Shown: positions 1 through 62,799 of the stretch, in pieces
How positions within the stretch are numbered: the first letter of the stretch is position 1
Layout: every line of letters begins with the position of its first letter
Source of the DNA: Laetmonice hystrix
Lineage: Eukaryota
DNA length: 64,000 bases
NCBI GenBank assembly: GCA_965235115.1
Contig: OZ249436.1
Span: 35,404,001 to 35,468,000 of the forward strand
Direction of reading: 5' to 3'
The notes under the pieces: model-generated
Seen by the model: the letters and a program-made list of their open reading frames with translations, nothing else
Database searches by the model: none
Told to the model about the DNA's origin: nothing
Made by a program: the position numbers and the translations under genes

Positions 1-97
1 TGAGTTCTCCCGCCAAAATTCTCTGGTAGCTACGATACTTTTACGTTAGAACATTATCCTTGGCAGATGTGTTTCTGCTTTTTTCTCTCTTTACTAG

Positions 98-11075: not shown

Positions 11076-11790
11076 CCATTCTGGCGGTCCGAAATCACCC
11101 ATTCTGACAGTCTGAACCACCCATTCTGACAGTCTGAACCACCCATTTTGACAGTCTGAACCGCCCAACCACTCATTCTGACAAACTGCACCACCCATTC
11201 TGACAAACTGCACCACTCATTCTGACAAACTGCACTACCCATTCTGACAAACTGCACCACCCATTCTGGCAATCCGCCCCACCCATTCTGACAAACTGCA
11301 CCACCCATTCTGGCAATTCGCCCCACCCATTCTGGCAATCTGCACCACCCATTCTGACAGTCTAAACCGCCCAACCACTCATTCTGACAAACTGCACCAC
11401 CCATTCTGGCAATCTGCACCACCGATTCTGACAATCTGCCCCACCCATTCTGACAATCTGCCCCACCCATTCTGACAATCTGCCCCACCCATTCTGACAA
11501 ACTGCACCACCCATTCTGGCAATCTGCACCACCCATTCTGACAAACTGCACCACCCATTCTGACAAACTGCACCACCCATTCAAACAAATTGCACCACCC
11601 ATTCTAACAAACTGCACCACCCATTCTGACAATCTGCCCCACCCATTCTAACAAACTGCACCACCCATTCTGACAATCTGCACCACCCATTCTGACAACC
11701 TGCGAACCACACATTCAGACAGTCTGAACCAGCACCCATTTGGACAGTCTGCACCAACTATTCCGACAGTCTGAACCACTAATTCTGGCA
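11076..11790. repeat. 22-bp minisatellite, about 30 copies
   Basis: Unit CCATTCTGACAAACTGCACCAC with variants; starts about 13 nt past the WDR41 stop codon. Confidence 0.95.
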
Positions 11791-11802
11791 GTCCACTGTG
11801 GC

Positions 11803-14800
11803 TTACACTATGCCAGCCATGGCTGAGCCCAGCAGAAGCTCCCTGATGACGTCACTGCGTTTCCAGTCCTGGCGACAACCATCCTTCCACAAGATCAACA
11901 AACCATCCAATCCACAGGACACAAAACCTTCACTTTCATAGTCTAGACACATCTGAAACATACCCAGATTATGACCATCAGATATTAGTGAGACTTGTTA
12001 CGGTGATCAGATCACAGTGAGCCACAGTTTGGTCTGTCACCTTTCTATTTGAATCTGGTCTCAGAATGTCAGCGTGATAACATTTTGTGTTAAAAGGTTC
12101 CAAGAACCGGTCTTACCTGGACAGCTCCTGAGTGAGCCAGACATTCTCCGAGCAGGCTGGGTTCCATCGGTTCAGATCCTTGTGATGCCCTCAGCATATC
12201 CTTACTAAAAACAAACCAATAAGTTCAAGTTATAATGTTAAAACCTCCGAATGTTGCTTCAATTTATCTCTGACTAAAACTGAAGGTGCAGTGATGGAGC
12301 AATGTACCAAAGTAGTCCCACCTGACACCCATGAACTTCTCGATGACTGTCCTCTCCTCCGGCCCTCCAGGCGTGCGGCACACTTCTTTCTCTTTCTCCT
12401 CCTTCGGGGTAGTGGCCACACGAGTCCGTGGACCCCACAACCTGATGCTCCCATCCTCGGAACAACTTGCCAGGAAGACACTGTGGTAAAAGAAAAAAAC
12501 ATGACCTCTAAGAAATTAAAGAAAAAAATATCTCAGAATGAAGAATGTGTCCCAAATATTTTTAATTATGTAGCATGGCTGTGATATGGTCTAATTTACT
12601 GGTTTGACTCCCTATGTTAAAGGTTTATGATGAAGTTGTATAATAAAATGGTGGAAGCATGAACACTGTACCCATCATAGACGAACTCTAGATGCAGAAT
12701 CTTGGAATAGTGTGCATTTAACTTCTTGGCCAGAAGACGTCCTGTCATGCAATCAAAGACACAGAACCCTGACCCAATCGCAGCAAACATGTAGCGCTGA
12801 AAGCAAATGTTACCTGAAACCTAGTAACTGCAAGTAGAAGGCAGGAAACGAATCTCTTGTGTATCAGTTTTGGAAATAAACTTTTTATTGCCTATAATTT
12901 TGCATGCCGTTCAAAATGTGAATTCTTTAGAAATTAAAATTAACGAACATTATAGCCAGGAAATAAAATAATTACATTAGTTACTTCTCTTGCTTAGTAG
13001 TTAACTGATCCCAAAATGTGCATACCTCCTCTGCTACTGTTATATGCTGAATACTGTAGGGATACATCTTGTTTTCGCCCTCGTAATCTCGTAGTGCATT
13101 AAAATAACGTGACGGCGTCAGGGCAGGCACAGTCCACAATACCACAGTGCCATCTAGAGAACCACTGGCAAAACACCCATCTAGAAGAAATATGTCACGA
13201 TTTACCAATAACATAACACACAAACCTCAATGGTATTTTACTACTTTTACTCAATTATTTTTCCAGGCTCACCATTTCTACTCACCATTTACTTGTACAA
13301 GACTGCGAATGGCCTCTCTATGTGCAGGGAGTTTTCTACGCAGCCGTACACTCCATTTTTCTCCACCTACTGGGCCCTCAACGTTGGCGCTATAAACCAC
13401 TATAACAAACATTAACCCTTTTTCACTTGTATCAAAAACATAAATCTGTTAAACATTAAGAAATTCCAAGTGCAAAAAGGGGCTTAACACATTAAGAAAC
13501 TCACCCAACTGGCGATCCACAATTGTTATAAGGAGATCAGTTCTCATCACAACCATTGCTTGGATATCTGAAATAAAAGAAGTACTGTAATGTTTTTTCA
13601 TGTACTTAACTTAAGTTTGTAAATAGTCAAGACTTATTGCTTTTTCTTATTTTGTTAGTTTGAACTATTGCATAGGTCTAAGTCAAGATAATAAAAGATT
13701 TACAGTGTCAGGAGAGAATTACATGTCTTTACTGACCCTCCTCTTCATGTCTGTTGTACTTTGTAAGAAGTCGGCCATCCCGATCCCACAAACACAATTT
13801 CTCTCCCCCTGCACAAAAGACGTCGTACTCTGGAAGGGTCAAAAGACACTAGAAAAAAATAAAGAAAAAACAGATTAATCATACAACTTTTCAAAAACCT
13901 TCCGTGTTCATCCAATTTTTGCTCCTAACATTAAAACCAGTTTCTAACAGGAGTGTATTAATTTATTTAAAATGACTTATCAAAAATGATGATTGTGTCA
14001 CATCACAATTTTAATACATGGCTCAAACATACCAATAGATTTAGAAGAGGTGGTAGAAATCGCAAACAAACGTGATATACTTTGATATTCCTTCAAACTG
14101 TCACAGGTTGTCACTCTACAAGAATACTGTATACAATAGTGAAGATGTGCATGGTGCAAATATTTGTACATACCCGAATGGGACCATCATGGTCAGTAGC
14201 TGTGAAAAGGCAACATCCTGCATCCACGTTCCATGCCTGGTACAAGTTAAGGTTGACTATACACCTCCAAACACTCAAAGTATCTGAGCCTGTTGTATAT
14301 GACAGTAATACCGTGGCATTCTGTGGGTAATTCTTCAAAAGTTTTGAGAAATAACAATCCCCAATCTGACATATTTAGGGAATTATAAATTTTTGGGGGG
14401 ATTCAGTTCAGCTACCTTGACTAAATCAAGGATACACAAACTAGTTTGTCCGATGCAGCTGTCAATAGGATGGGTGGCTCCCCCTGGTGGTCGGTGGAGA
14501 TAGTAATGGTTGCCTCCATTAGACACATGCTGGTGACTGGGCGCCGATGGCCAGATAACACATGAAGCCGTCTACCAACCTAGAAAGCATTACACAATTT
14601 ATCCTTTTTTTTTTTTTTTTTTTACAACAATAATGCAGTTTTCTCATTATGTACAAATCTTAACCCCAAACTCGGTTTCATTACAATTGATACAAAACTG
14701 AAAAGTAAAAACTTTTAAATTATTTCTTAATCATTTTAACTGTTAACAGTTGCTTAATCTTTAAGGTTGTTGCTTAACTGACAATGATAATCTGTAAATT

Positions 14801-16031
14801 ATACTCTATTTCTTTTATCCAAAATTGATTCCATTTCAACAAATGCAAACTGATATGTAAACATGTGTGACATCTATCTAAGCAATTTTGTTGAAGTGAG
14901 TAGAGGGAAATGACAGTACCACATTCTTACCTCTATGTCCCACACAACAAACAGACAGTCATCCCGTACCACATTCTTACCTCTATGTCCCACACAACGA
15001 CCAGACAGTCATCCCGTACCACATTCTTACCTCTCTGTCCCACACAATGACCAGACAGTCATTTCGTACCACATTCTTACCTCTATGTCCCACACAACGA
15101 CCAGACAGTCATCCCGTACCACATTCTTACCTCTATGTCCCACACAAGGACCAGACAGTCATCTCGTACCACATTCTTACCTCTATGTCCCACACAACGA
15201 CCAGACAGTCATCCCGTACCACATTCTTACCTCTATGTCCCACACAATGACCAGACAGTCATCCCGTACCACATTCTTACCTCTATGTCCCACACAAGGA
15301 CCAGACAGTCATCTCGTACCACATTCTTACCTCTATGTCCCACACAACGACCAGACAGTCATCTCCTGCCGAGGCACACCTGAACAATTGACGACATGTC
15401 TACTTCATCATTTTTGGATAGCATGTACCAACTGATTAGCTTCTAAATGTCAAGGCTACAATATTTAACAATTACTTAGATACAAGATCTATAACAAGGT
15501 TATACTGTTCCCAAGAAAATCTCCTGTCTGCTGAATATTCTTTAATGAAAACATTTAAAGGGGAATTTTTTATAGCAAACAAAATAATAGCCAAGGTTAA
15601 CCTATTGAGACTTTCAATGCTTACTTGGTAGAGCTGACCTGGATGAGGAGGCGGACAATGTCGCTGTGGTGGGACAGTATTTGAACCTCAGTGAAGGGGT
15701 TCTCTGGCTGGTTTTCTTTGACTTGAACAACATCATTCTGTCATAACCATCAATGCAGAACAGAGTAAACTTAGCTAAATTAATAAATTGATAAAATAGG
15801 TATATATTAAACTTTAAAAGATCAGAAGCAACTTCAGAGCTATCTTTTGAGACTGTCATATATTTAAGGTTAAGTCTTACGTTAAATGAGTATACACATA
15901 TTTGTAAGTACATGCACATGATGCAGAGTATCATGTACTGCATTTACATGTACTGGGCTTTTTATGTTAAAAAGTTTACCCACCTCTGAGGTATCATCTC
16001 TTCGTTTACGACTCCTTGAACTTCTTCTCAT
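11803..16031 (-). CDS. WDR41: WD40-repeat protein 41 (C9orf72-SMCR8 complex subunit) orthologue
   Basis: Exons in transcript order: 16031-15984 (tentative start), 15737-15625 (QPENPFTEVQILSHHSDIVRLL), 15379-15331 (CASAGDDCLVVVWDIE), 14579-~14436, 14236-14174, 13848-~13737, 13567-13505, 13399-13286, 13180-13026, 12796-12672, 12480-12322 (LASCSEDGSIRLW), 12204-12117 (LLGECLAHSGAVQ), 11952-11803 (FVSCGLDGLLILWKDG...*). Motifs are colinear with human WDR41 as recalled (NPYTE..L..HHDIVR, ASAGDD, SCSEDGSVRIW, LIILWKNG). Confidence 0.9.
14916..15365 (-). repeat. 50-bp tandem array (9 copies) spanning a WDR41 exon/intron donor junction
   Basis: Minus-strand unit GAGATGACTGTCTGGTCGTTGTGTGGGACATAGAG|GTAAGAATGTGGTAC = 35 nt exon + 15 nt intron; copies every 50 bp from 14921 to 15321. 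Confidence 0.95.
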
Positions 16032-16761
16032 AACTTCAGTCACTCACACAAAGGTATCAAGAAGAAATTTCACTGATTGTGGATGACCTTCCAATGTTTT
16101 TTCAAATCACTGGACAAACAAAATTATGAAAATTTATTACCGGTAAGCCTATAGAGATTGTGTCCTTGACATGTAAATGAGCAGAAATAGCCTTGAAATG
16201 CATCACTTTGGTCCCTAAACGATTGTTATGTCAGGATTTCTCCATTGGTTTAACATGGGATGAGAAGACACACTTTTAAACATTGACAGATTTTTGTCAA
16301 TTTAATTTTTGATATACACGTATGTAAAAAATGAAAAGTATTCTTTCATACGTAAAACAGGTTGGTGCTCTTGTTTTTTGTAAGCTACAAAAATGAAAGC
16401 ACCCTAACCATGAAATAGTAATATTGCCAGCTATCCTATGCTATTCACAATGCTAAATGGGGTACTATACGCCAAAACACTCGGAAGGTGGCGCTTCCAC
16501 CAACTAAGCCATCCAAAAACGAGGTTGCCATTGTAAAGGATAGGGTGGCTACCATCAAGCCACGATTACACTTCTTTCGGGTCGTTTGTAATATTCAGAC
16601 ATCGTGAAAAGTGCAGACATATGTCTCTTTTGTTTTCGACATCAAACGATACCTAATTTAAAAGATGACAAAAATTTTAAAAACCATTATTTGTATCAAT
16701 GTTACCGGTTCGAGGCTAGACCTATTGTCAGAACCAATCAGCCTAGACTAGCGTGACATTC

Positions 16762-16771
16762 AAAATGGCGG
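16762..16771 (+). promoter_or_regulatory. YY1-like motif in the probable WDR41 promoter region
   Basis: AAAATGGCGG about 730 bp upstream of the tentative WDR41 start; motif match only. Confidence 0.3.
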
Positions 16772-17658
16772 AGTTCCAGCTGTCACTTCAACTTTTGTAA
16801 CTATTGGAATAACATGCAAATCACGCCAAATGAACACCTAACGTGGCGTAGGTATCTGAAATGTGATATTTCATGAAATACCCCTCGTACAGAACTGAAG
16901 ACTTGTCTATTATCTTTAGTCTACGCCCATAAGGTACTGTCGGCAGTGAGCAGGGACAATGTTTTGATCACGTGATTTGATTGTGCCGCAATATAGCCTA
17001 GACGTCTAGGCTGATAAAAGACCTTCAGTTCGTCTATTCAGACTTAGGACAATCTTCTATGTCTCGATGTCGTGATGCTTCTTCTGTTAATGGTTGCTAC
17101 TATGCTCACAATCTGTGATAAGCTAACGTGTGGTTCAGCAGAGCCTCCAGTCAGGCTGAGCCAACCCTATCCTGGCCTACTGCATGGCGTAGTTGCTGAC
17201 AGCGCCACCTGTCGGATTAGTTCTGAAAGTACCCCATTGACAAGATTACGACCACGTTAGGACCAAACTCGGCTGTTCTCATGTTTTCTCATGACCCACT
17301 TGCACACCCATAGGAGTCATGAAAAAAGGAAGAGAAATCACAATGGGTGCATCTGGGGCCAGGGCATCTTGGACTTCTTAGAAGGACAATCTGCATCATC
17401 ATCCCTATTTTTTGGCACGAGTTAGGTGCCAAAATTTTAAATTGTAAAAAATGCTTTTTTTCACACTGATTATGTTATCATGATGGAAGTCTAGAATTTA
17501 TCTGGCAACGGCAAGTATTCTGGCAAAATAAGCAGGCTAAACGAGACTGTCAATTTTTAACCTTAATTAAAAAGCTATGTGCTATTTATAGAAGTCAATT
17601 TCAATGCTACAGTACACCGGTAACATTGAATTTTACAAGAGATGAGGTTTTATACACA

Positions 17659-17828
17659 CCGTATATGTCCCTTTAGCCGCGCATGTGGGCAGAAAAGCAG
17701 TGCCCGGCAATAGGGAGGTTGCGCCGGAAGCTTACAAAATTTTACACTAGGTGGTGCATCGAATACGGGTTTCCGGCACAGCTTGTTTGAAAAAATGAGG
17801 GGGTGCGTGGCTAAAGGGACATATACAG
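17659..17828. mobile_element. MITE with about 25-bp terminal inverted repeats
   Basis: CCGTATATGTCCCTTTAGCCGCGCA ... TGCGTGGCTAAAGGGACATATACAG. Confidence 0.75.
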
Positions 17829-20236
17829 TATGTTTAAATTGACTAGATTTTAAGATTGAATCGATCGATCTTATCTGTATTTTATTGCCATTCTATGTCT
17901 TTTGGAATGTGTGAATAAAGATATTATTATTATAGCCTATATAGGATGGTCGTAGTTATGTTATACGCCACTATTACATTACGCCATTAATGTTATTAAC
18001 AACACTGTCAATGTCATTAATGTTATGCCAGGGTTAATTTATAATTAGTAGACGTCTAGACTAGTTTGGGCGCTAATGAGAGAGATAATCTGCTTTTTTA
18101 ACCACTGTTCTTGTGCCATACTCTTGAATTTCCATAAATCCAGTTTGAGAAAATAAAGTGGCGCCATCTGGTGAGTATGATCTTGTGCAGCAAAAGCCAA
18201 AACAAGGCCGTGTGATGACACTCACAAAGTGACAGCAAGCACTATCATATGCTAAGTTATAGCGCGCAGCGCGCGCCGCCGAAGGCGGCGCCGCGAAGCG
18301 CTGTTATGGCAACGTACGTGGATCTTCTCTACCTCGGCCCGATCCACCAAGCCGACAACTTAAACCGGATGGTAACCGGACCGCAGTCCATGCACGGCGC
18401 CATCTTGAATGTCCGAGTTGCGGGATTTTCTCGATTGTGATTGGTCGAATAAATGTCAATTAATGAGAAACTCGTAAAGAATGCAAAAATATTCCAGCTA
18501 TATTTAAATTATGGCTCCAGTGACTGAAGGAGAAATATCGGATCTACTTTCACCAGCCGATCGCTGTCTGTAAATTACTTTAGCTTGTGCGATTCTCAAA
18601 ACTAGTTCACTCAAATCCCGCTATGCGCCGCCAGCGCTGAAAGCCCACTTCCGCCACTGGGACTTCCAGTGTCAACATCCAGTACGACACACTGCCGCTC
18701 TGTTTCCGAGTAGCTATAGGCCTATACATGTCATGATCGTCGGGCTCGATTGGGCTATAAATAGAGTTAGGATTAGTTAAGGTTAGGGTTAGGGTTAGCT
18801 CTCAATCATTTCTGTCTGATGAATAGATATTCATACTAGTCTACCTGTGATCGTTAGTCCGCAGCCCGCAGTAGGCTACCTCGCCGTAATCGTTTAACAT
18901 CCACCTACCACGGCACTAGACTAGTACTACCAGACATGCTGCGCGCTCCCTATGTCCCCGACATTTCATATTACGCCCTAGGTCAGGACAGGTGCGCGAA
19001 GATAGCTGCACTAGCATGGCACAGGCACGCAGCCTCTGCCTCTACGTATTGTTGGCTCGATTACAACACAAGACAAGGAAGAGTAAACTAAAGAATGGAC
19101 GACCAACCTGACTCCCATCCCATCCATAAACAGTTTCACGGTTGTAGCCGCAAAGTTGTGCACACTTAAATTATGCTTGATGTTTCCGCTAGGGGTAAAG
19201 GCAGGTATCACCTCGGTTTGTCTATTTATACGGTGGCCCCAAATCAGGGAAGAGAGATCCCTCCTTAGAACTCTACATTCTCTTTCTCATTTTATAATGT
19301 GGGTTTCATGAAAACAGTGTGCCATGCAATACAATCAAAGTCCGATTTAGCACATTATTTTAAATTCCGGTACAACAGCATTGAACAGCATCCAACACTT
19401 GCCACGTGCATTTGTGCCAACAATTTTAAATAGCATTGTGAAACCTAAATCGAGCACCCAAAACAGTGACAGTGTGTCAAATTTCCGGCTTGTCAAATTC
19501 ACTTGTTGTGTTTGCCAGATAGTGACAGGAGCAAAGAAGTTACCCGGAAGCTTTGGAAAATCGTAACCGACTCGTGCAGATCTGTCTGAGTGACTCCTGC
19601 TTCAATTGCAGCTCTTTTGACGAGCACAAAAGAAGATCCAGTTACTTTTACTTTTACGAGAAGGTAGGTAAGGTAGGGATTGAAGAAATAAGAAAGTCTA
19701 GATCTATCTAGTATAACAATTAAAAGACAAGTCAACGAATATAGATCTATGAGTATGAGCAAGGGAGGCCCAAGTTTTTTCGAATTTAGTTAGTTTCAGT
19801 TTCAGTCAATGTCTCAGTGTCTGTGACTGTGATACTCTGTGACTCATGAGTCATGTCTGTCCCTCTCTGTGACAGTTTATTTATTTATTCGCAGTGGTTG
19901 TTCTGCCGCCAGACTGCAGAATAAATAAATTAATTAGTTTGACTTATTACCGACACGAAACAATGAATATGTTTAATTTAGAGTGACTGTTATAGTGTTA
20001 AGCCAAAGGTTAGGCCTAGGGTTAGTGTTAGTTTAGTGCAAAAATTCTTATTAATTAAGTACGGTACAAATTAGATAATCTGCTATTCTTCCGCAAGATA
20101 TCATCCAATAAGAATCCAGTATTGCAGTCACATTATTTATTTGGCAGTGGTTATTCTGCTGACATGTGTTCAGGATGAGATGTGTTTGATTGATTAATTA
20201 ATATTAATATTAATGCATCTCCTGTTGATATCTTAA

Positions 20237-21420
20237 GGGGAAGGAGGACCGTAAAATTTCTGTAGTAAACTTTGACATTTTTTGAGTTTTTTCAATTTAT
20301 TACCATGTAAGCATCACATAATCGCCAAAAAAATGATATGCTTCCAGGCTAATTTTTGTAGTATGGGGTTTTTTTGTACTGCACCCCCCTGAAAATATGG
20401 CAAATTTTGGCGCATTTCCATGTATCGTTTCAGGCAAAAGAAATACATCAAATAATATCAAATGTATACATTTTTTCACCCAGAAAGACTGATATGTAAC
20501 ATACCTACCACACTGTACTAAAAAATATGCCGATTAAACTTTTTTTTTTTCAGATTTTGTATTTTTTCGAGGTGGTTGCCTATATTTTTCATCGTAAAAT
20601 CCCACCTTTTTCAATAACAGGAGAAAACTGGTAGTAAATGTTATATTTTTTTTGGCTAAAATTAAAGACAATGACCAACTCTCATCAAATCAGTAAAAAA
20701 AAATATACCATTCCAGGGTAATTTTTTTGGTAGGACCCCTTTTTTGTAGGAAATTTACCCATTTTTACCCAAAATTCGGGTTTTTTGCTCCTACAAACTA
20801 ATTAGTGGTGAATGTATTTATACAGTTTTGGCCTATAATTAAAGATAATGACCATTTTCATCAAAATAAACTAAGACATCTATGTCATTTCAGGTAAACG
20901 TGTCCCTGTGACCACCTTTTATGTTGTTGAAAAGGGCCCCAAATCACCCCCCCCCCCTCCCTGGGAGGTCACACTGTGGCCAGTGGCAGTGGTACAGGCC
21001 GGCTACTATTGTGACGTTAGAAATTAGGCCCTATTGTTCAGTAGTTCCAAAAGTATTGTGACGTCACAGTATCTGAGTGATGACAATAGGACTGTTCTGT
21101 CAAATATCATAGTCATTCTACTCAGATTCACTCAGCTAATTGACTCAGTTGAGTCTAACAGAAACCCAAATAATCCACTCAACTCCACTCGACTTAGCTG
21201 AGTGACTTTGCTGAGTGTGTTGAGTGGAGTCAAAGCCCTCTACTGGTAGTGGACGGCTTTGGTGGAGTGAAACTTGAGTGTAAGAGAAACCGGGCCCTGG
21301 CAGATGGAGACACTGGATTTGTGACTGCTAGTTCTTGTCTGTGCCACTGGGGCGCCACTGTAGGCCTACTATGCGCGTAAACCTGCGCAGTGGTCTGATT
21401 TGCTTCGGTGCTCCTTCCCC
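20237..21420. mobile_element. Non-autonomous DNA transposon with TTAA target duplication (Kolobok-like termini)
   Basis: TTAA|GGGGAAGGAGGACCG ... CGGTGCTCCTTCCCC|TTAA; 15-bp TIR with one mismatch; purine-purine 5' end; no transposase ORF. Confidence 0.75.
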
Positions 21421-21953
21421 TTAACATATCCATTATAAATACCCCCCTCCCACCATGACTAGTCAGTAAAACAAAATCTAGGTAATGAAAACGGGCCGTG
21501 AGCAAGCGCCCCCATCCCACATTGATGTCACCGTGCTGTTTGCTACCACTGGAAGAGACACATACTGAAGTACTGCTGTAGAAATTGTTATCATGACATA
21601 ATCGTCTGATTTAGACAGAATTTTTTCTAGTAATGAACTCAGCTCTGAAATAGAATCTCTGTGATTCTGGGAGTAATAGAGAAGATGTGGGAGGTTATCA
21701 AGAAGTTGGTAGGTGGCTGTATGAGCCCCAGAGGCAGGCGTACATACTAGAGGAGGTTGACCATACCTTGGGGCTTGGGGACAGAGAGTAACATGACATG
21801 AATTAAATTGGTGCCATCTTTATGGTGAAAGTGAAAGTGGTTGGAATTACACAGATTTATCAATAGGGGGCACTCTGTTCACAGGCATTGGGCTACTACC
21901 AGAGCCACCGTGTGGCTCATCATCAAACTACTCCAACCAAATGAGATGTACCT

Positions 21954-22132
21954 CCTGGGGTCCGTTCCACTAACGAAAGACGTCTTTGGCAAAGACGTCT
22001 TTGGAAAGACGTCTTTGCGGCGCCAATGTTAAAGAATAGGATCTTAGTGGAACACCCGTCGCCGCAAAGACCTCTTTGGGCTCAGCGACCATTTCAAAGA
22101 GGTCTTTCGGGCTTAGTGGAACGGACCCCAGG
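21954..22132. mobile_element. MITE with PIF/Harbinger-like ends
   Basis: CCTGGGGTCCGTTCCACTAA ... TTAGTGGAACGGACCCCAGG; internal AAAGACGTCTTT palindromic repeats. Confidence 0.8.
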
Positions 22133-25848: not shown

Positions 25849-28800
25849 TTATACTCTCTTGTGCCAGGTTTTGCTTGTGATGTTTCGCACTCTTGCTGTC
25901 TGTAATATTTAGAAGAAAAAAATACTGAAATAATCTTAGAAAACTTGTGACTTCTCCCAATTAATATTTTAGGTTCTTTGAAATGGGGGTGGATGGTAGG
26001 TTAACTTTAGAGAAATATATAAATATGGTATCCGATGTGTGGACGTGCTTCTTTTTTTTACCCGAAGTGTTGTGTCAGTCTTTATAACATGGTACCGGTC
26101 AATAGTCTGCCCACTGGCTGACCGCAAGAGAACAAGACCACAGTGTCTCCATTCAGGCCAAGCTGACACTATGCTGAAGCCTCCGTTTTCTTTTAAGCTG
26201 TTATGTTCAGTGACTTTTTAAGGAGGTACTTAACTTCATTCTAAATGAGGAAGGAAAGAAGTGTTATGAGGAATTGGTGATTCACTATACCCACCACCAC
26301 AAGCTGATTGCCGATAACTTCTCGGGTCATCTGTGCATCGAGGTGAGGATCATCCTTGTCACGATGCAACTCCACAAACTTGCCATCCTCAACGTTCACC
26401 TTACTCTGAAACATGAGAAACATTCAGACTGGTAATGATGGCAACTGGGCACATTCAGACTGGTAATGACAACCATCAGACACATTCAGACTGGTAATGA
26501 CAACCATCAGACACATTCAGACTGGTAATGATAACCATCAGACACATTCAGACTGGTAATGACAACCATCAGACACATTCAGACTGGTAATGAATGTAAA
26601 ACACCTTTAGACACATTTAGTGGTGATGACCATCAGACACATTCAGACTGGTAATGAATGTAAGACACTTTTAGACACATTTAGTGGTGATGACCATCAG
26701 ACAGATTCAGACTGGTAATGATAACCATCAGACACATTCAGACTGGTAATAAATGTAAGACACTTTTAGACACATTTAGTGGTGATGACCATCAGACACA
26801 TTCAGACTGGTAATGATGGCTGTCAGACATTCAGACTAGTAATGACTTTTAGACACATTTAAACACATTCAGATTGGTAATGATGACTTTCAATCACATC
26901 CATACCGGGATTGATGACCGTCAGGCACATTCAAACTGGGAAAGAAGACCGTCAGAAATGTACTGGTGATGATGACCATCAGTCACATTCAGACTGGTAT
27001 TGATGACAATCAGACACATTCACACTGGTAATAACTTTTAGACACATTTATACACAATCAGACTGGTGATGATGATCATCAGTCACATTCAGACTGGTTA
27101 TTCAAACAGGCGATTCCAAGGGATAGGTCTACTTCAAAGATTCTTCAGACAGACACTGAGCTGTGACTAAGCGGTGATAGTATGTAGGCCATCTTGGTAC
27201 GTGTAGTCGTAACAGTACTTAGCAAATGTTAGTTTTTTAAAGGCTACAAGATAGGAATGATTCACCGTTGAAATGGGGAATCGCCTATGCAATGAGCACT
27301 CAGACACCCAGGTTCAAGTTTTATGGTCACACAAAACAAAACACAATACAAAACAGAAAGTGTAAAGTTGGCAGTGCACTCAAATGAATATAAAGTCTCA
27401 ACAGTTTAAGGCGTTTCAGTACCATCGCCGTTTCGGCACTTCAACAAGTGATACTGTTCACTGACATCTTGTATGACTTAAAAACGTTTGCAAAGTTCCA
27501 TGTTTTTACAAGATTTTAGCTGTTTGAATCACTAATCTATGATATTCGTTGTCTGATCAGTTTTGTGGCAAAGCTCTAGGGAAGAGGGCGCCGTGATCCC
27601 ATCGAAGCAAACAAAACTTTCTGCACTTTCTAAGTACAGCTGTGGGTAGTATGTACAAATGGTAATTTTAATCAGGGTTTCTTCTCTTTGGCACAAAGTT
27701 GGCAATAAGAAATCCAGTAGCAAGTAACTGACATGCATACAAGTTTAAAGAAGCCAGGTATAGATCTTTCTATTTTACAAAGGGCCGAGAAAGCGGGAAA
27801 TGGTCCTACCTTGATTGGTCTGCCATCCAGTGTGTAAGAGTCAAATTCCTTGCCAATGGTGTAATTGAAAGTTCGGCTCATACCGTTGGGCATATACACT
27901 GTGTAGGTCCATTTGTCACCGTCACGCATATACTCCATTGTAAAATGCATGTCAGAGTACATCTGCCGCTTCTCTTCCTCCATGTCTGCCAAAGAAGCAA
28001 AGGTTACAGTTAGTAGGAGACCAAAGAATAATCATCCTGTGTTGCATAATGCATCGGTAAAGTCTCAATAATATGAAAATGTTAGATGTTATTTTGAGCA
28101 TAAAGGTCTACACAGGGCCGTACTCGGTCAAATACGGCTAGGGGCCATATGTAGAACATAAATTTCAATCAATTTGTCAAAAAGGGTGTTTTTCCTCCTT
28201 GTCAAAAAGGGTACTTTTCCCAGATACCAAGCGACTGCAATGACAAATTCCTAAGACACTCGTTTAGATACGCTTAGTGAGAAACATTAGCAGTGGTTAG
28301 ATGGACACCAACCAGTGTTGTGTTATGATTTGGCCATCCCAAGCCGATCCACACTTTTAGTAAGTGTACGTGGGCCCAGATGCTGGAAGGCCGGTGACAG
28401 GACGAACTTCGATGAAGACCGTCACTGGGTGAACGTGGATCATATCAAACAGCAGCCATGGCTGTCATATCGCTTTTACTTGATTGCCCATCACATTTGA
28501 TTTAGCCACACCGGGTCGTTGCCCTTATAAAACTAGACAGGAGTCTGGTGCAGTCTATTAACATGGCTAGAGATTGGAGATCCACTCAAACAAATTGTAA
28601 GTAGCAATCCCATACTATGGCATAGTGTCGGGTATAGGGTCGTATTTGATGGAATTAAAAGTTTGCTTTCAGTTCAAAACTTTGATGAGAAACCAATCCA
28701 ATATCCAGTATCCAATATCATAACCTGTTCTCGTGCGAGGAGGAAATGCTAGTTATGTGTACTGAGTTGCAAGGGGTTTGGAGTCGAGGTCATTTCCCCA

Positions 28801-37452: not shown

Positions 37453-40400
37453 GGTTGCTGTGGTCCGATCCCGGACAGGTTCGGATGTCCTGACCGTTAC
37501 TTGACAGGTGTCCCTCTCTCTGGCTGGCTGGCTGGCTGGCAGGCTGGCAGGCTGGCTGGCTGGCAGTCCTCCCACTCAAGATCCTATGCTCAGTCCTCAA
37601 GTTGGGCCAGAAGCAAGCCACTCACTGCTCCGTCGGTAGTGGGACTTTTGCGAAGAGGTTTTTTCTGTAGTAGGAGCGGGGTAAAGAAAGTTTGCTATGA
37701 GGTCTGGGTTTGTTATCAGTTTAGTGTTAGGTATTCGACCTCCAGCTGCCGGGTGCTCTCCGTGTAGGAAGATAGCGGCTGTCAGCTCCACACCTTGATG
37801 GTGTTATCACCTTGGGGTCGAGAGGTGCAGTGGAGGACCGTCAGGAGGACCGTCAGGAGGACAGACTCAGGACGCTGGAGCACTCATGGTCCGGCTGTAG
37901 CCACCGCTGGAGGCACACAGGGAGCCTAATGAAGAGTTCTGCTCAACCAGCGGCAGCAGCAGCAGCAGACTAGAAGTTGGTCTCTAAGAAAAGTGTGTGG
38001 TATTGTTGTGGCAGGAATGCACTTCACAAAAGTGAGCTGGTTGCAAGAAGCCGGATGAAGGGTGGAGAAAATATAGCACTGGGAGGAAGTGACTGTCTGA
38101 TGGAGGTGTGGTGGGCTGGAGGGCTGATTGGTGACCCAGCTACAGGAGTCTACTACAGGCGATGGTAATCAGCACCAGGCTGTGTGGAGGGAGGAGAGAG
38201 AAAGAGAGAGAGAGAGATGTCTGCGGTTCACCCTGATCCACACATTTCCCATGCTTGGGCCACCACTCTTATGTACCCCCGAGCCACGCATAATCTAAAG
38301 CTCATTATCGGTCGGTCTCGGTGGCAGCATGGCTAGGTGGGACGGGGCGCTCAATGGTGACATGTAACACCCACCAGAAATTATGACATCTGCCTATGAA
38401 TAATAATTGGGGTAATGCCAGTCAGGCCCATTAATAGTGGATACCGGCAGGCTGGGAGGCTGGGCCCCTGGCCAGAATATGCTAGACAGAGAGACAGATA
38501 GAGACAGGCAGACAGACAGACCAACAACAGACAGCCGAGCACATTGCAAGGGGTGACTGTGGACATTTGGCTCATCAAGCCGGTGGGCCAGTGATGCGGG
38601 CCACCCTGCTCCCCCTGTCTGAGCCAGTGGACTAGGCTCTGTTGGCTACACTAAACATGCTCTCTCGACCTGGTCAATAATCAAAGGAGACATGGCCAGA
38701 CGTCCGCCAGACACACAGACAGACAGGCCTAAGTGATGGCTTACATCACTGTCTCCCGCCGGGACTAGCCAAGCGGTACTCGCAGAATGGGATGAACCGT
38801 GCAGCTTGGGCCAACATCCAGCCATTCCTTCATCTCATTGCCAGTCCGCTCAGTCGGTGATGAGTTGGGATCAGGAAGAGCAGCCACTTCCCATGAATAT
38901 CATCGGTGCGAGGCATTCGCCAAAAAGGGATGGTTTTAGTTCACTAAGAATTACTTTTTAGATGAGCGCTTTTATACTTGAAAAGTTAATCAGAAGAGTG
39001 ACTTGTCCTGTACTGCCAGACTGAGACCAGCCCGTGAGGAGCAGCCGTGGCGAGTAGGGCATGAATGGGAACTTTCTGTTTCGATTCTCATCTGGTTCGA
39101 ATGGCCCTCCTCTTACACGCCCTTTTAGCGTTCAAGGAGGACCACATGGCTCAGCCTTCCCAACTCTGGATGACTCATCATTCTAAAGTAATAGTTCGCT
39201 TGCTCGAATAGTTAATGTATGGAAGTTGTGAAGTCAATCAAGATCAGGCACCGACGATTCCTATGTAGATTCATAACACCTTTAGATAAGCACTTACGAA
39301 TGATGAATGAAGACATATGAAGTTTCTTTGTGGATCATGTATCAAAGATATTCTCACATGGAACGCATCTCAAAAATACAAATCGGGCATAGTTCCTATA
39401 CCCCAGATAATTAGTTCCTACCCAGTTGGGGGATGTGACCCCGACGGGGTCTTGTTAAATTTTCCGTCATTTGTGTGTGGGAAGGGGGCGGGGGCTTATG
39501 TTTCCCCAGGCCTGAAGGTGCTCTTTAGTATTCTACCCCCCCCCCCCTCCTTCATGAAATCCTGGATCCGTGCCTGGTAATCCTGTAATGTGAAAACGGT
39601 ACCTCTGTCAGCTGGCTCTCCGTGTAAATGACGAAACCACTCTCGTTTATTTAATGTTCCACTATGTCTGTATTAATCAGGCAGTGTATATGTGGGGGTC
39701 TGCGTTGTTGTTGTTGGGAAGTCAGTCCGGGCAGGCGAGATTCCCCTGGTGGGGCTGTGGAAATATAGCCAGAGAACAGTACACGCAAGGTGGCGTTCAC
39801 GTGACCAACCTCCAGACAGGGTTCCCACTGGCGCTAAAAGTTCTAGGGGGGAATGTGAAAAAAAATTGTATACACTTTACTCGTAAAACTATTTGCTGTC
39901 AACATGAGAAATAGTCATGGAAAATGGGAGATTTGGATGCACGAGTCTATTGGGATTTGGGGAGGATACACCCCATGAAAAAACTTACATAGGTTTAAGA
40001 TTAATGCCTGCTACATATTTTCTCCATTCATGGGAACACCGCCGTGCCCCTTTTTGATCTGCCCCTAAGTTATTCGAAGAAAAGTTACATGCTGAAAAAA
40101 AGTGTACACGAGCCAACAGTATGAGAACGCTATATAAAGCATGTAGTGCAACTGCAGTGTGCAACTGCAGGACGCTGGCCGAAGCCCTGTATGTTTTCCT
40201 TCATGGCTGCGAGTAACTGGATATGACGTTGTCGCAGTGGTACGCTGAAATACTCGGCATGTAGTCAGGCCATGATTAGTACGATTCCCACCTGATCTTT
40301 ACTGTGCGGTCAGTCTCTGTGAGTGTCGGAAACACAGGGCACTCGTCCCATTCAGACGGTTCCCCAGTGCCGGTCACCGGTGGAACGTTTTCGGTCATAT

Positions 40401-40476
40401 TGTCCTTGGGAGGGGGGGTAAGGGAGAGGGGGATCGGGAGGGGGGGGGGGGTGAAAGGCTAAAAAAGGTAGGCATC

Positions 40477-40880
40477 TGATGCATAGATTCCTATGTAACT
40501 GATGCATAGATTCCTATGTAACGTTTGTAAACCATGCATAGATTCCTATGTAACTGATGCATAGATTCCTATGTAACGTTTGTAAACCATGCATAGATTC
40601 CTATGTAACTGATGCATAGATTCCTATGTAACTGATGCATAGATTCCTATGTAACTGATGCATAGATTCCTATGTAACTGATGCATAGATTCCTATGTAA
40701 CTGATGCATAGATTCCTATGTAACTGATGCATAGATTCCTATGTAACTGATGCATAGATTCCTATGTAACGTTTGTAAACCATGCATAGATTCCTATGTA
40801 ACGTTTGTAAACCATGCATAGATTCCTATGTAACGTTTGTAAACCATGCATAGATTCCTATGTAACGTTTGTAAACCATG
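40477..40880. repeat. Compound minisatellite of 23-bp and 32-bp units
   Basis: ATGCATAGATTCCTATGTAACTG interleaved with ATGCATAGATTCCTATGTAACGTTTGTAAACC. Confidence 0.95.
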
Positions 40881-41065
40881 CACTCCCTCTCAGAGTAGAC
40901 TGCTATACCTGGGTAGATGGCGTTTCCCAGATTGGACCATTCACACGTGGGCAGATGACGACACTAATTGATTTCTTCGCAATACATTATCTTGTGTGTG
41001 GCCATTTACATCAAGTCGGATACCAACACCGTCGTGTTACGAGCAACGAGTGCGACAGGCAAACA

Positions 41066-41270
41066 CCTAATAAATTCTTCAGTTGCTAAAAAAGATTGAA
41101 ATGGCCACATAACGCCTAATAAATTCTTCAGTAGCTAAAAAAGATTGAAATATATATAGTACATGTATATACATAACGGAGCCAGCTAAAAGGAATGGCC
41201 ACATAACGCCTAATAAATGCGTCAGTATAGCTAACAAGGATTGAAATAGTAACATAACGCCTAATACATG
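41066..41270. repeat. Degenerate ~49-bp tandem repeat, about 4 copies
   Basis: CCTAATAAATTCTTCAGTWGCTAAAAAAGATTGAAAT...ACATAACG recurring. Confidence 0.7.
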
Positions 41271-42055
41271 CCTTCTATATATTAACAGACCATATTTTAT
41301 ATGGCGACACGGATTGTCAGTGAGGAAAGGCTAATGGTAATTCTGACAAGTCTACACTGCGCCTTCGTCTCGCCGTCCGTGGCAGGAAGCCCCAGACTTC
41401 TGTGAAAGCGACCCTTGAAGGCTTCACTTTCTGAGAACGACCAATCTCATTCATTAAGGTAGCCTAACAATAGCCTCAGAGTTCAGAGACCGCACATGGC
41501 ATAGACTGCGGGGGATGGCAAACTCGCCGGTAATTCATGAAAAGAGCGCTGTTGGAATAATACGATAAGGCTTGCTTTTGGAAAAACGGCTTGTTGCGGC
41601 AAATCCGGCCGCATGACGTTAAAAACGTATGGTTGTGCATAGAGAGTTATTCCTTATTATTCTATGACCACAGATGGTTAATGCCAAGAAGATACTACCT
41701 GCTGCCAACACTGTTTTCTCGTCATTGAAACATTGATCAACCATATCAATGTTCACAGACGTTCTGGAGGTTGGGGAGTTGAGGAGAGTCAGGTTTCATC
41801 TTACCGCGATTAATGCCACTTAAAAAAAGAAGCACAATATTTCCGACTGAACGGATCAGGTTCGTTCGACCAAAATAAAAACTACTAAATGAAGGTTGTT
41901 CAAACCACCGAGACAAAACCTGTACAAATGATCAGAAATCGGTGTAATGGCACTGTTTGTCTGACAATTTTCAGAAACCAGCACTGCTTACAGAGAAGTG
42001 GGCTTCTGAATCCGGTAGTGCTATTTTCTGTAGCATCGTTTTAATACTGTTATTA

Positions 42056-42364
42056 AGGCCTATCAAAAATGTTTCCGGTTTGTGTCTCCTCAAAAATAGG
42101 GTCGGTAAGTAGGGGGTTTATTTGATTTTATTTAATATTTTATTAATATATTTCAATATAGCATGATAACATTTACTTAGTAGACCTATTTAGTATGCAG
42201 TCTCCCGTGGAAGTAGGCCTAACTATGCCTGACTATTTGGCGAGTTGCCTATTGGCGTAATTATGTCGCCATGTTACAAACGTGACTGGAAAAACATTTC
42301 GAGTCGGTAGGTTTTAACAGGGTCTGACGGAAACCGGAAACAAACTTTTTTTTGGTTTCGCCTA
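42056..42364. mobile_element. Degenerate MITE
   Basis: AGGCCTATCAAAAATGTTTCCGGTTT versus AAACCGGAAACAAAC(T)nGGTTTCGCCT, imperfect inverted ends. Confidence 0.5.
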
Positions 42365-42688
42365 AAATGCGAATACGTTTACGCCTACGTTTTTTTTTTT
42401 GCTGTTGAATATTAACGATTTAACAAATGGTGGTTAACATTCAGTATCAGTCTCAACTTGATGACGTCACGCAGCAGGAACGTTTATTAAAACACATCCG
42501 ACGACTACTGAACATCTTCACTGATTTGTTATAATCGTTCACACCTAAAGTTGCAACGTTTTCATGTTGTTTACTTACATTATTTCTGCATTGATTCCGC
42601 GTCTGACATTATGTTGGGACGGAAAACAGGCTTAGCATTTGGTTTATTCATTAAGCACTCTCGTTTATTAAGTACAAACATTGAAGTA

Positions 42689-42962
42689 CAGGGGTGTCGG
42701 AAGCTATTGATAGCTGGGGGGAGGGGTCCAAGCCTGAGGCCAGGAGCCGTCTACCTCTGGTCAGCCTATGCCATTGACAGGGGGTAGCTTTGGTTACCAT
42801 GCAACGGCTGCCGGCTAAAATATGGGGGCATTTTGGGGTAATTTAAGCATGGAATTTTGACCTTTGGACATTGGGGGGGGGGGGGGGGGGCAAATAATAA
42901 TTTGGCCCCCTCCTGTAATATCGAGAGGGGCATGCCCCCCGCCCCCTGTTCCCACACCCCTG
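42689..42962. mobile_element. MITE-like insertion upstream of the caspase coding exons
   Basis: CAGGGGTG ... CACCCCTG termini flanked by AAGTA on both sides; internal poly-G. Confidence 0.6.
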
Positions 42963-43275
42963 AAGTATGAACGTGATCAGGTAATATGGAAACTGAAGAC
43001 TGTCGTCTTGAAAATACATGAAAACTCGGACAGACGTTGAGCCTTTAGATCAGCCTATAAACGACGGGTTGATGTAGTGTAGAGCATTGTAAAGGTGTGA
43101 CCATTTCATAACTGAAGGTTTCCCTCAATGCTATCTTTGTATGCTGACACCTTCCATGTATCTCACCATATATCAAAGACATTTTATATGATAGAATCTC
43201 TTTAATTTTTTTTTTACATATTTTTTTTACTCGTTTTGTTTCCCATGTAAAACAATGCCATGATGATGTTGACAG

Positions 43276-46085
43276 AGGCGATAATCCAGATGGACCCCTG
43301 CCGACCGAGATGAGGTTTGACCGTTACAAGTTCACCTTCCCCCGGCGTGGCCGTGCCATCATCATCAACAACCATACCTTTGACCGGAGACTTACCGGCC
43401 AGCAGGACCGCGACGGCACTGACGTGGACGCTGCCGCCTTGGAGAATGTTTTCATGGCGCTGAACTTCGAAGTGACTCGGTATGATAACCTGACGACACT
43501 CGACATGTCCATGAACATGAGGGCAGGTATGGTGTTCAACTGGTATAGGTCTAGTGGGAAAGGTTGATTTACTTAAAGATGTATTTACCTGGCGATAGCA
43601 ATATCCCAGGTTTCGATCAGAAATGCATGAATAAACAATAACAACAACATCGAATTTTTGTGTGGTTAATTTCGTGCTAAGACTTAAGTTCAGATGAAGA
43701 GGTGATCGTCTACAATTTAATTGTGGATGTGTTAATGTTTCAGTGGCAACCGAAGACCACAGTGATGCAGACTGTTTTGCGTGTGCCATTCTCAGCCATG
43801 GAGAGATGGGGGAAGTTTATGGCACCAATGGCAAGATAAAGATTGATAACATCACCAAAAATTTCAAGGCAGATGTCTGCCCTACGCTAGCAGGAAAGCC
43901 TAAACTCTTCTTTATTCAGGTTTGTATAAAAGAATCGTTTGACAAATCATATATTTTTTTTTACCAAACATGAAGTTGTGATCTTTGGAGATATTTACAC
44001 TTATTTTAAATGTCATTATTTCATGGAAAACTAGACTGCCTTTAGAGGACTCAGAAATCGTTTCTGTGTCCCTACTGTAGGCTTGTGTTGTAGCTTTGAC
44101 TGGGGTGCCACTGGGGTGTCGTGGGAGGAGGTTTGACTGGGGTGCCACCGTGGCCAGTAGAGCAGACCGTCCCTGTTTCCCTGTTGTAGGCGTGTCGTGG
44201 TAGGAGGTTTGACTGGGGTGCCACCGTGGCCAGTAGATCAGACCGCCCATGTTTCCCTGTTGTAGGCGTGTCGTGGTAGGAGGTTTGACTGGGGTGCCAC
44301 CGTGGCCAGTAGATCAGACTGTCCCTGTTTCCCTGTTGTAGGCGTGTCGTGGTAGGAGGTTTGACTGGGGTGCCACCGTGGCCAGTAGATCAGACCGTCC
44401 CTGTTTCCCTGTTGTAGGCGTGTCGTGGTAGGAGGTTTGACGTGGGGTGCCACCGTGGTCAGTAGATCAGACTGTCCCTGTTTCCCTGTTGTAGGCATGT
44501 CGTGGTAGGAGGTTTGACTGGGGTGCCACCGTGACCAGTAGATCAGACCGTCCCTGTTTCCCTGTTGTAGGCGTGTCGTGGTAGGAGGTTTGACTGGGGT
44601 GCCACCGTGGCCAGTAGATCAGACCGTCCCTGTTTCCCTGTTGTAGGCCTGTCGTGGTAGGAGGTTTGACTGGGGTGCCACCGTGGCCAGTAGATCAGAC
44701 CGTCCCTGTTTCCCTGTTGTAGGCGTGTCGTGGTAGGAGGTTTGACTGGGGTGCCACCGTGGCCAGTAGATCAGACCGTCCCTGTTTCCCTGTTGTAGGC
44801 GTTTTGTGGTAGGAGGTTTGCCTGGGGTGCCACCGTGGCCAGTAGATCAGACTGTCCCTGTTTCCCTGTTGTAGGCCTGTCGTGGTAGGAGGTTTGACTG
44901 GGGTGCCACCGTGGCCAGTAGATCAGACTGTCCCTGTTTCCCTGTTGTAGGCCTGTCGTGGTAGGAGGTTTGACTGGGGTGCCACCGTGGCCAGTAGATC
45001 AGACCGTCCCTGTTTCCCGGTTGTAGGCGTGTCGTGGTAGGAGGTTTGACTGGGGTGCCACCATGGCCAGTAGATCAGACCGTCCCTGTTTCCCGGTTGT
45101 AGGCGTGTCGTGGTAGGAGGTTTGACTGGGGTGCCACCATGGCCAGTAGATCAGACCGTCCCTGTTTCCCTGTTGTAGGCCTGTCGTGGTAGGAGGTTTG
45201 ACTGGGGTGCCACCGTGGCCAGTAGATCAGACCGTCCCTGTTTCCCTGTTGTAGGCCTGTCGTGGTAGGAGGTTTGACTGGGGTGCCACCGTGGCCAGTA
45301 GATCAGACTGTCCCTGTTTCCCTGTTGTAGGCGTGTCGTGGTAGGAGGTTTGACTGGGGTGCCACCGTGGCCAGTAGATCAGACCGTCCCTGTTTCCCTG
45401 TTGTAGGCGTGTCGTGGTAGGAGGTTTGACTGGGGTGCCACCGTGGCCAGTAGATCAGACCGTCCCTGTTTCCCTGTTGTAGGCGTGTCGTGGTAGGAGG
45501 TTTGACTGGGGTGCCACCGTGACCAGTAGATCAGACCGTCCCTGTTTCCCTGTTGTAGGCGTGTCGTGGTAGGAGGTTTGACTGGGGTGCCACCGTCGCA
45601 GACGGAGTTGAGGACGAGACTGATGCCGGATCTATTGATGACCAGTCCATTCGAAGAATCCCGGTGGAAGCAGACTACCTCGTGGCCTACTCTGTCGTGC
45701 CAGGTAAATATTTGTCATAATATGCTCGTCCGAAGTATTTTCAGTATTCTAATAAACTGAATAGCTTCACACATACATGTATAATGTGATTGAATTTCGA
45801 AGATTTAAATGAGTCAATGATGTAGTTTTAACATTGTAACTGCCGGTAGGTTACTTCTCTTGGCGTAACAACGTGGACGGGTCGTGGTTCGTTCAGGCTA
45901 TCTGCCGGGTTCTCCGCGAACATGGCCACACGGAGGAACTGATGAGGATGATGACCCTCATCAATAAAGTGGTCGCCTACGACTTCGAGTCGTGCACCGA
46001 TGACGACTTCACTAGCAAAATGAAACAGGTGCCATGCATGGTGTCTACTCTCACTAAGGAAGTGTTTTTCACACCAAAATATTGA
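43276..46085 (+). CDS. Effector caspase (caspase-3/7-like); N-terminus unresolved
   Basis: Exons ~43276-43526 (RGRAIIINN, RDGTDVDA), 43744-43919 (CAILSHG catalytic His; LAGKPKLFFIQ), 45559-45703 (ACRG completing QACRG; linker EDETD/A; IPVEADYLVAYS), 45850-46085 (GYFSWRN, GSWFVQ, KQVPCMVSTLTKEVFF*). Phases consistent. Confidence 0.93.
44050..45596 (+). repeat. 76-bp tandem array spanning the caspase intron/exon acceptor junction
   Basis: Unit GCGTGTCGTGGTAGGAGGTTTGACTGGGGTGCCACCGTGGCCAGTAGATCAGACCGTCCCTGTTTCCCTGTTGTAG. Acceptor AGs end at 44189, 44265 ... 45482, 45558 (19 copies) plus a degenerate copy at 44080. Confidence 0.97.

Positions 46086-62758: not shown

Positions 62759-62799
<41 letters not shown>

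Follow-up and report, generated by a model that had tools for sequence, protein, structure and literature searches.

Tandem Arrays Spanning Exon–Intron Junctions of a WDR41 Gene and a Caspase Gene in Laetmonice hystrix

The amphioxus Adh3 gene is reportedly the subject of a 2002 paper by Canestro et al. Minisatellites in which the repeated unit spans an exon–intron boundary, called mirages, are known in amphioxus from Adh3, the globins BflGb6 and BflGb9, troponin C and PGBD5 (PMC3087553, PMC3902484). Normal splicing is reported for these mirages (PMC3087553, PMC3902484), which have been proposed as a source of new introns in amphioxus, with their origin called unclear (PMC3087553). In the 37-bp VNTR of human F7 intron 7, the first unit spans the boundary, 5–9 identical donors follow, and the most upstream donor alone is used (PMC1557585). 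In principle, introns or alternative transcripts can result from duplications of minisatellite size at exon–intron boundaries (PMC2812944, PMC3265369), and the earthworm metallothionein gene is described as carrying intronic minisatellites and exon duplications, which are not junction arrays (PMC12783039). In the largely open-access literature, the matches listed included neither a test for mirage enrichment across a genome nor a report of mirages outside amphioxus.

Here, we analyzed a window of 64,000 nt from L. hystrix (contig OZ249436.1, positions 35,404,001 to 35,468,000), in which TRF detected five large non-coding tandem arrays. The first-pass annotation of this DNA had placed four of the five on a gene boundary. 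All five arrays exist, and two of them contain a junction inside the tandem unit, at the WDR41 donor and at the caspase Q|ACRG acceptor, but the other two, a 22-bp array at the WDR41 stop and a 31-bp array at an acceptor of a FABP-like gene, merely adjoin a boundary without containing it. The count of four pools these two classes, and the claim of repeated anchoring on boundaries is only partly supported.

The arrays and their host genes

The WDR41 gene, on the reverse strand, was identified by PDB matches to human WDR41 (E = 5e-6 and 1.5e-4) and was modeled with 11 exons and an open reading across 406 aa; a protein search with one of its exons gave no match. The donor array consists of nine 50-bp units (14916..15365, reverse strand; TRF 14916-15363, 95% matches), each comprising 35 nt of exon end and 15 nt of intron start. 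The first unit forms the 3′ end of a 49-nt exon (15331..15379, reverse strand) that has AG/GT flanks and an open frame with donor 1 alone. All nine GT donors are intact, including the predicted productive one at 15330-15329 and eight decoys. The units differ from each other by 0–3 nt, with the donor itself invariant, and the edge copy is barely more diverged (3/50) than the interior. Upon translation, read-through from any decoy donor meets a stop within 45 nt.

The caspase gene, on the forward strand, was identified by a Pfam Peptidase_C14 match, and a protein search gave two caspase matches; its first exon was not located in the window. Its acceptor array (44114..45596, forward strand, from the unit table; TRF 44116-45596, 19.5 copies, 97% matches) is built from 76-bp units of 38 nt of intron end and 38 nt of exon start, the exon part including the catalytic Cys codon. 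There are 19 intact acceptors, of which the last (exon start 45559) is the predicted productive site and the other 18 are decoys, and a donor-like GGTAGG lies inside the unit, 10 nt past each acceptor. A single G/A variant, located 37 nt upstream of the productive AG, occurs in 2/19 units. The intact exon that follows the last acceptor (45559..45703, forward strand) was defined by tblastn, the C14 match and a spliced contig from run X4, and carries two allelic differences, both synonymous. At the outer edge of the array is a decayed copy (44041..44113, forward strand; AG at 44079-44080), which is identical in 54/79 columns and gave a score of 77, whereas the highest score among 500 random draws was 39.5. 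Translation from a decoy acceptor runs into a stop after 15–40 codons.

The sequencing runs all derive from one sample and were available as contigs only. The caspase joint leading from 45596 back to 45523 was present in 3/3 DNA-like runs, at 8–10 times the single-copy depth, and this joint, the structured unit variants and the decayed edge copy make it hardly credible that the arrays are assembly artefacts. In favor of an artefact, contigs cannot fix the copy number, the depth ratio of 8–10 being less than the 19 assembled units. This shortfall may have arisen because variants of the unit were distributed among several contigs, or because the second allele is shorter. In run X4, which was considered RNA-like from one spliced contig, no run being recorded as RNA, splicing of the following caspase intron was seen as a skip of 146 nt. 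This contig begins at 45583, short of the upstream exon, and leaves the array intron unbridged. The absence of X4 coverage from the intronic half of the caspase unit was not used as evidence.

The unit does not span an exon–intron boundary, the defining property of mirages, in the 22-bp, 31-bp or mixed 23/32-bp arrays. The 22-bp minisatellite (11070..11797, reverse strand; TRF 11070-11787) lies in the inferred 3′ UTR of WDR41, with the stop at 11803-11805 outside the array, separated from it by 5 nt, or by 15 nt if TRF's own end is used. The stop-proximal unit is the most decayed of the array, with 15/22 matches. The degenerate 31-bp minisatellite (26409..27098, reverse strand; TRF 26412-27098) occupies intron 2 of the FABP-like gene and contains no exon sequence, ending 3 nt from the acceptor AG (26407-26406). 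Judging from its motif, this unit probably covers the likely branch-point region, but neither the AG nor the exon. Both would be ordinary minisatellites, with edges that likely settled against constrained sequence. The fifth array (40476..40882, no strand assigned; TRF), with its mixed 23/32-bp units, lies between the FABP-like and caspase genes, >2.3 kb away from every annotated exon edge. Strong G skew was observed in two of the four genic arrays.

Two exons of the FABP-like gene match Lipocalin_7, below the curated cut-off, and exon 3 had no FABP match of its own in Pfam and protein searches. By itself, exon 3 matched only de novo beta-trefoil proteins, which we took as spurious. When spliced together, the three exons keep one reading frame that is free of stops; exon 4 was not located in the window.

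Placement and shared sequence compared with chance

To obtain a null distribution, each array was collapsed to one seed unit and placed at random. Shuffling of full-length arrays was not adopted as the principal test, since no real junction can lie within an array's interior. For a window that was itself picked for showing boundary arrays, which bears on all of the placement P values, the probability that at least two of the five arrays span a junction was 0.037 over the whole window, and 0.076–0.17 when the three intronic arrays were compared with intron-only space. The probability that at least four of the five lie no more than 6 nt from a stop codon or splice site was 0.00024, for a class that was defined post hoc. 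When all 13 non-coding TRF loci were included, two spanned a junction (0.54 expected, P = 0.10) and four touched a boundary (0.82 expected, P = 0.006). The first-pass annotation had proposed a check against shuffled positions; the nearest form that was run found no excess at exon edges, with a local copy at 2/99 edges, compared to 14/150 random positions. Overall, the excess of boundary arrays over chance is borderline.

These values bear on the possibility, which we consider fairly unlikely, that a mutational process favors junction sequence or a short core, so that junction arrays arise more often than by chance while still being functionless. Examples of such a process would be nicking or recombination at sites of the CAGAC/TCAGACTG type, or R-loops formed during transcription where exon edges are rich in GC. 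Besides the null P values for spanning (0.037) and touching (0.00024), a bias of this kind is consistent with the CAGAC counts in the four genic arrays (7, 9, 24 and 19) and with the 8-mer CAGTCTGA, which is common to 3/5 arrays (null P 0.005–0.008). However, CAGAC was found by eye, several word lengths were tried, the shared-word null P is 0.035–0.06 for 7 letters and 0.16 for the 5-mer when allowing for all 5-mers, the core is absent from the fifth array, and the orientation of the motif relative to the gene varies among arrays. In minisatellites of other organisms, CAGAC occurred in 2/11 TRF rows (loci L001-L080), both from one array, compared to 0.55 expected, which says little. As for R-loops, the two WDR41 arrays have sense-strand G skews of 0.55 and 0.58, compared to 0.06 in the WDR41 introns, and by GC content the caspase unit ranks within the top 2.4% of junction windows, but the skew is 0.02 in the FABP array and 0.21 in the caspase array, whose own introns have 0.19. 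Furthermore, the array units are no more folded than other junction windows, 28–90% of which are more stable. Hairpin-driven slippage as a cause found no support: the predicted folds of the five units are not more stable than those of multimers built from other junction windows.

It is unlikely, in our judgment, that minisatellite birth in this lineage is directed by sequence, such that the core CAGAC (extended TCAGACTG / GACNGTC), present in all four genic arrays, marks the starts of amplification and exon edges hold more seeds than chance would give, with mirages representing the footprint of a hotspot together with selection for frame-breaking unit lengths. The suggestion that selection tolerates only the geometry of the two junction arrays, which mirror each other and have units that are not multiples of three, is not carried by these features. 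The lengths of 50 and 76 bp are indeed non-multiples of three, but the chance of this for two of two units is 0.44. Tandem duplication across a junction always yields either exon-(unit)n-intron or intron-(unit)n-exon, and in each arrangement one site remains next to the complete exon. The mirror layout is thus the geometry of any junction duplication, and no sign of selection.

Probable origin and tolerance of the junction arrays

We assign a probability of roughly 0.65 to the WDR41 and caspase arrays being mirages that arose as local duplicates spanning existing junctions in a repeat-prone genome and that are likely tolerated. Slippage or unequal exchange would duplicate a short stretch. With the short introns of this DNA (median ≈250 nt), 17–38% of stretches of 50–76 nt that overlap an intron also cross a junction. 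Turnover then expands and homogenizes the interior while the edge copies decay, as shown by the variant pattern, in which interiors with 95–97% matches, compared to the 54/79 of the outermost caspase copy, indicate concerted evolution with the edge units excluded. From the geometry, one splice site would always be left adjoining a complete exon, and exon definition and the F7 experiments suggest that the first donor and the last acceptor would be used. The likely reason for their tolerance is that the spliceosome would go on choosing the one site that adjoins the complete exon. Transcripts spliced at decoys, which meet an early stop, would be removed by nonsense-mediated decay.

This by-product account is supported by the observation that spanning is not clearly above the intron-only null, by the ordinary size of the host introns once the arrays are collapsed (351, 745 and 199 nt), by the age of the caspase intron (see below), and by continued transcription of the caspase, with splicing of its following intron. 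Against it, the placements (P = 0.037, 0.00024 and 0.006) exceed what pure chance predicts, though the class was post hoc, and the shared CAGAC core and 8-mer are not predicted by random birth. Scanning from 5′ to 3′ fits the donor case, but does not explain the skipping of 18 identical upstream acceptors in the caspase.

The position of the caspase intron was compared across 79 caspase-family loci, which are family relatives whose orthology to this caspase is not established. The position was kept, with a GT directly after the same Gln codon in 30/79 loci, but the duplication of the acceptor was not: it was single in 21/21 loci with a findable acceptor. Judged by these loci, the intron position is old and common to distant relatives, and the array therefore did not create that intron.

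It is very improbable that the arrays gave rise to their introns, through a proto-splice site duplicated in tandem, or that they now generate exons. Such a model has been proposed for mirages (PMC3087553) and intron gain was demonstrated experimentally for segmental duplication (PMC3265369), while the GGTAGG past each caspase acceptor could act as a donor for a new exon. However, the intron position in 30/79 loci refutes intron creation for the caspase, unique sequence persists beyond both the WDR41 and the caspase array, so that neither intron is wholly a duplicated exon piece, and a 10-nt micro-exon would break the frame. The idea that the arrays supply raw material for new exons, introns or copy-number-tuned splicing found no support: no instance was seen in the window, read-through from the decoys meets stops, and the caspase intron is shared with distant relatives.

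We also consider it improbable that the arrays are functional, with the copy number tuning decoy use and thereby setting WDR41 and caspase levels via RNA decay, or giving a truncated caspase that has the large subunit only. The decoy sites (8 donors and 18 acceptors) are intact, and human tandem repeats have been linked to splicing variation (PMC10078293). Across one unit, both genes retain an open exon frame, and a stop arises only after a frame slip, so that a unit length that is not a multiple of three is what makes mis-splicing destructive. However, homogenization alone predicts intact decoys, the acceptor was duplicated in 0/21 of the caspase-family relatives (orthology not established), and splicing is reported as undisturbed by the amphioxus mirages (PMC3087553, PMC3902484) and the F7 array (PMC1557585). 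No transcript using a decoy was present among the matches listed, which cannot show absence.

Comparison with known systems

The WDR41 and caspase arrays add two new and clear-cut cases to a type of repeat that has been described but received little study. The caspase array amounts to a natural experiment in acceptor choice, with 18 near-identical upstream acceptors to skip, unlike the prediction from plain 5′-to-3′ scanning, and it places the catalytic-site codon within sequence under concerted evolution. A junction bias or seeding motif, if true genome-wide, would offer a mechanism for the origin of mirages and a measurable source of new introns.

The F7 VNTR is a direct parallel to the nine-donor array of WDR41, in which the choice of donor is predicted; it differs in involving donors only, and as described gives no account of why, among 19 acceptors, the final one would be selected (PMC1557585). 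Compared to intron gain by tandem duplication, as presented in PMC2812944 and PMC3265369, the caspase intron predates its array, and neither a new intron nor a new exon was observed. A close resemblance is to the mirages of amphioxus, in which the units likewise span the exon–intron boundary, both 5′ and 3′ boundaries are affected, and the copies keep their splice signals; the unit sizes found here fall within the reported 10–160 bp, and BflGb6 shows the same homogenized interior and diverged edges (PMC3087553). The differences are that the host is another animal, that the caspase array has 19 copies, compared to 3–6 in BflGb6 (PMC3087553), and that the amplified piece of the caspase carries the codon of the catalytic site.

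Arrays across the WDR41 and caspase junctions

Five large non-coding tandem arrays were identified in the window with TRF, and two of them span an exon–intron junction. The WDR41 donor array (14916–15365, minus strand) consists of nine 50-bp units by TRF and unit comparison, each joining the 3′-terminal 35 nt of a 49-nt exon to the 15 nt at the start of the intron. The units differ from one another by 0–3 nt, and the donor is intact in all nine. Upon translation, read-through from any of the eight decoy donors (extra splice sites that do not adjoin the whole exon) reaches a stop 45 nt beyond the true exon end. The WDR41 intron that directly follows the array-bearing one (14237–14435, minus strand) has the donor GTATCCTT and a branch box, CCTTAAC, near its AG, two elements that make it resemble a U12-type intron.

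The caspase acceptor array (44114–45596, plus strand; TRF and unit table) is made up of 76-bp units, in which 38 nt of intron end are followed by 38 nt of exon start. Nineteen acceptors are intact, and the last of them (45559) leads into the complete exon, which continues the QACRG motif. A twentieth, decayed copy at the far edge of the array is identical in 54 of 79 columns; its alignment score is 77, and 500 random draws reached 39.5 at most. For each of the 19 decoy acceptors, translation runs into a stop 15–40 codons past the junction. In the presumably productive unit, a G/A variant at 45522, 37 nt ahead of the AG, creates a branch-like TGAC that is found in only one other of the 19 units, the one before 44571. 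Since the chance of this pattern is 0.11, we consider it a lead rather than a finding.

The first-pass annotation had placed four of the five arrays on gene boundaries and pointed to the mirrored geometry of the two junction arrays, proposing either genome-wide amplification of junction sequence or selection for this geometry alone. The observation is real, but as described only in part: the 50-bp and 76-bp arrays span a junction, while the 22-bp and 31-bp arrays only touch a boundary. A tandem duplication crossing a donor would yield exon–(unit)n–intron, and one crossing an acceptor intron–(unit)n–exon; in either case the whole exon would keep one adjoining site and the extra copies would end up in the “intron”. 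Any tandem duplication across a junction thus forces the mirror image, which is silent on selection. Both unit lengths are indeed not multiples of three, as had also been noted, but this would be expected by chance with a probability of 0.44. It may still matter, because in both WDR41 and caspase one unit can be read through in the exon frame, and a stop is met only once the frame slips. Read-through RNAs with such early stops would be targets of nonsense-mediated decay.

Probable expression of caspase and age of its intron

Four sequencing runs were checked on a stretch containing the last caspase unit and the next 13.8 kb. The joint 45596→45523 was present in three of them, all with introns covered throughout, at depths of 457, 377 and 366 vs. 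57, 36 and 46 in adjacent single-copy contigs; all four runs came from one sample, possibly the assembled one, and hence lend no independent support. The fourth run (X4) contained one spliced contig, in which 45583–45701 was joined to 45848–46516, skipping 146 nt that correspond exactly to the next caspase intron. Because this contig is spliced, X4 is probably RNA and the caspase gene is probably expressed. The contig stops short of the upstream exon and covers only the joint downstream of the array intron. Two allelic differences in the exon after the last acceptor, among those listed, are both synonymous. X4 also covered ≈2 kb downstream of caspase (46693–48664), unspliced and at a depth above that of the caspase contig, so that this stretch may belong to a long 3′ UTR or form a transcript of its own.

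One caspase exon served as the query in a metagenome scan, which returned 80 loci; 79 of these were examined (L073, in which the match ended early, was excluded). The same Gln codon was directly followed by GT in 30 of the 79; 44 were continuous and five were other. The intron position is therefore old, and the array amplified a pre-existing acceptor. The acceptor could be located in 21 loci (≈15 distinct introns) and was single-copy in all 21, which are relatives within the caspase family (34–79% identity), without orthology being implied.

Placement of the arrays and shared motifs

The WDR41 stop is followed, 5 nt downstream, by the last recognizable unit of the 22-bp array (11070–11797). 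In the FABP-like gene, the 31-bp array (26409–27098) ends 3 nt short of the acceptor AG. The fifth array, of mixed 23/32-bp units (40476–40882), lies >2.3 kb from the nearest annotated exon edge. A candidate acceptor, consisting of a pyrimidine run and an AG ≈10 nt past this array, occurs at 40883–40912; if it borders an untranslated exon, the fifth array abuts a boundary too.

For the chance of such placement, each array was collapsed to one unit and placed anywhere not wholly coding, and 90 annotated junctions were scored. In the whole window, the probability that at least two of five units span a junction was 0.037. For units touching an intron, that of at least two of three was 0.076; leaving out the interior of the sole 9.4-kb intron raised it to 0.17. 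The pooled class of arrays lying no more than 6 nt from a splice site or stop gave P = 0.00024 for at least four of five (0.001 at 25 nt); the class was defined post hoc, in a window selected for showing it. Among all 13 non-coding TRF loci, two span a junction vs. 0.54 expected (P = 0.10) and four touch a boundary vs. 0.82 expected (P = 0.006). The annotation lacks UTR exons, FABP exon 4 and the first caspase exon, so that junctions are undercounted and the P values are too small; furthermore, six of 88 intron ends are approximate in the null, with one WDR41 acceptor 19 nt off its final position. The null presumes pure insertion, and an old array could also end up against constrained sequence once its neutral flank has been lost or replaced. 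Of the 99 exon edges tested, only two have a copy nearby. The window contains a hint of an excess, without establishing it.

Each of the four genic arrays (all but the 23/32-bp one) contains CAGAC or its complement, with 7, 9, 24 and 19 occurrences. The fifth array has neither this core nor the palindrome GACNGTC, which three genic arrays share. The chance of such sharing is 0.16 for CAGAC, with all 5-mers allowed for. CAGTCTGA occurs in three of the five arrays, all three genic, with a chance of 0.005–0.008 for any 8-mer and 0.035–0.06 for 7-mers. CAGAC was spotted by eye, several word lengths were tried and its orientation differs between arrays, so the sharing may be due to chance. No unusual folding was found in the repeat units, and strong G skew was present in only two of the four genic arrays. 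We consider it improbable that the amplification is both motif-seeded and biased towards junctions.

The window otherwise holds three GH18 chitinase genes in tandem (1–10641, plus strand), with matching exon structures and no large tandem arrays, WDR41 and the FABP-like gene on the minus strand, caspase and an RA/PDZ-domain gene on the plus strand, and a minus-strand gene end. The latter, a coding exon of >2.5 kb (61431–64000) with poly-Asn and His/Gly/Pro-rich coding repeats, probably belongs, by its sequence pattern, to a gene of the DEG/ENaC type. In this animal DNA, introns are short (median 249 nt for 44 annotated introns with arrays collapsed). Upstream of the RA/PDZ-domain gene and outside annotated exons, a 31-bp repeat (50403–50490, 2.8 copies) carries a donor-like GGTAAGG in its unit. 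A perfect 80-nt inverted repeat with a 1-nt spacer (59398–59558), ≈20 nt past a donor of this gene, is either a genuine palindrome or an artifact of the assembly folding back on itself. A MITE-like element with 84-nt inverted arms (51936–52184) is covered very deeply by the DNA-like runs and is skipped in some contigs, and is therefore probably polymorphic between haplotypes.

Proposed origin and relation to mirages

The junction arrays most likely started with a local duplication across the junction, after which the array expanded and homogenized while its edges decayed, as the variant pattern indicates. By geometry, the array would be tolerated since one site keeps the whole exon; the spliceosome would favor that site, and mis-spliced products would be degraded. 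That the last caspase acceptor would be chosen is probably due to exon definition from the downstream donor, and the classic duplicated-site experiments of Reed and Maniatis reportedly point in the same direction. In F7, only the most upstream of 5–9 identical donors is used (PMC1557585).

The term “mirages” was introduced for tandem repeats across exon–intron boundaries in amphioxus Adh3, with further cases in globins, troponin C and PGBD5 (PMC3087553, PMC3902484). In these papers, both boundaries are affected, units are 10–160 bp, length varies and splicing is undisturbed; the origin is given as unclear, and a route to intron gain is proposed. The WDR41 and caspase junction arrays share the structural features of the amphioxus mirages, whereas the other three arrays do not. 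Mirages are already known, and what is new here is the WDR41 and caspase junction arrays as further examples.
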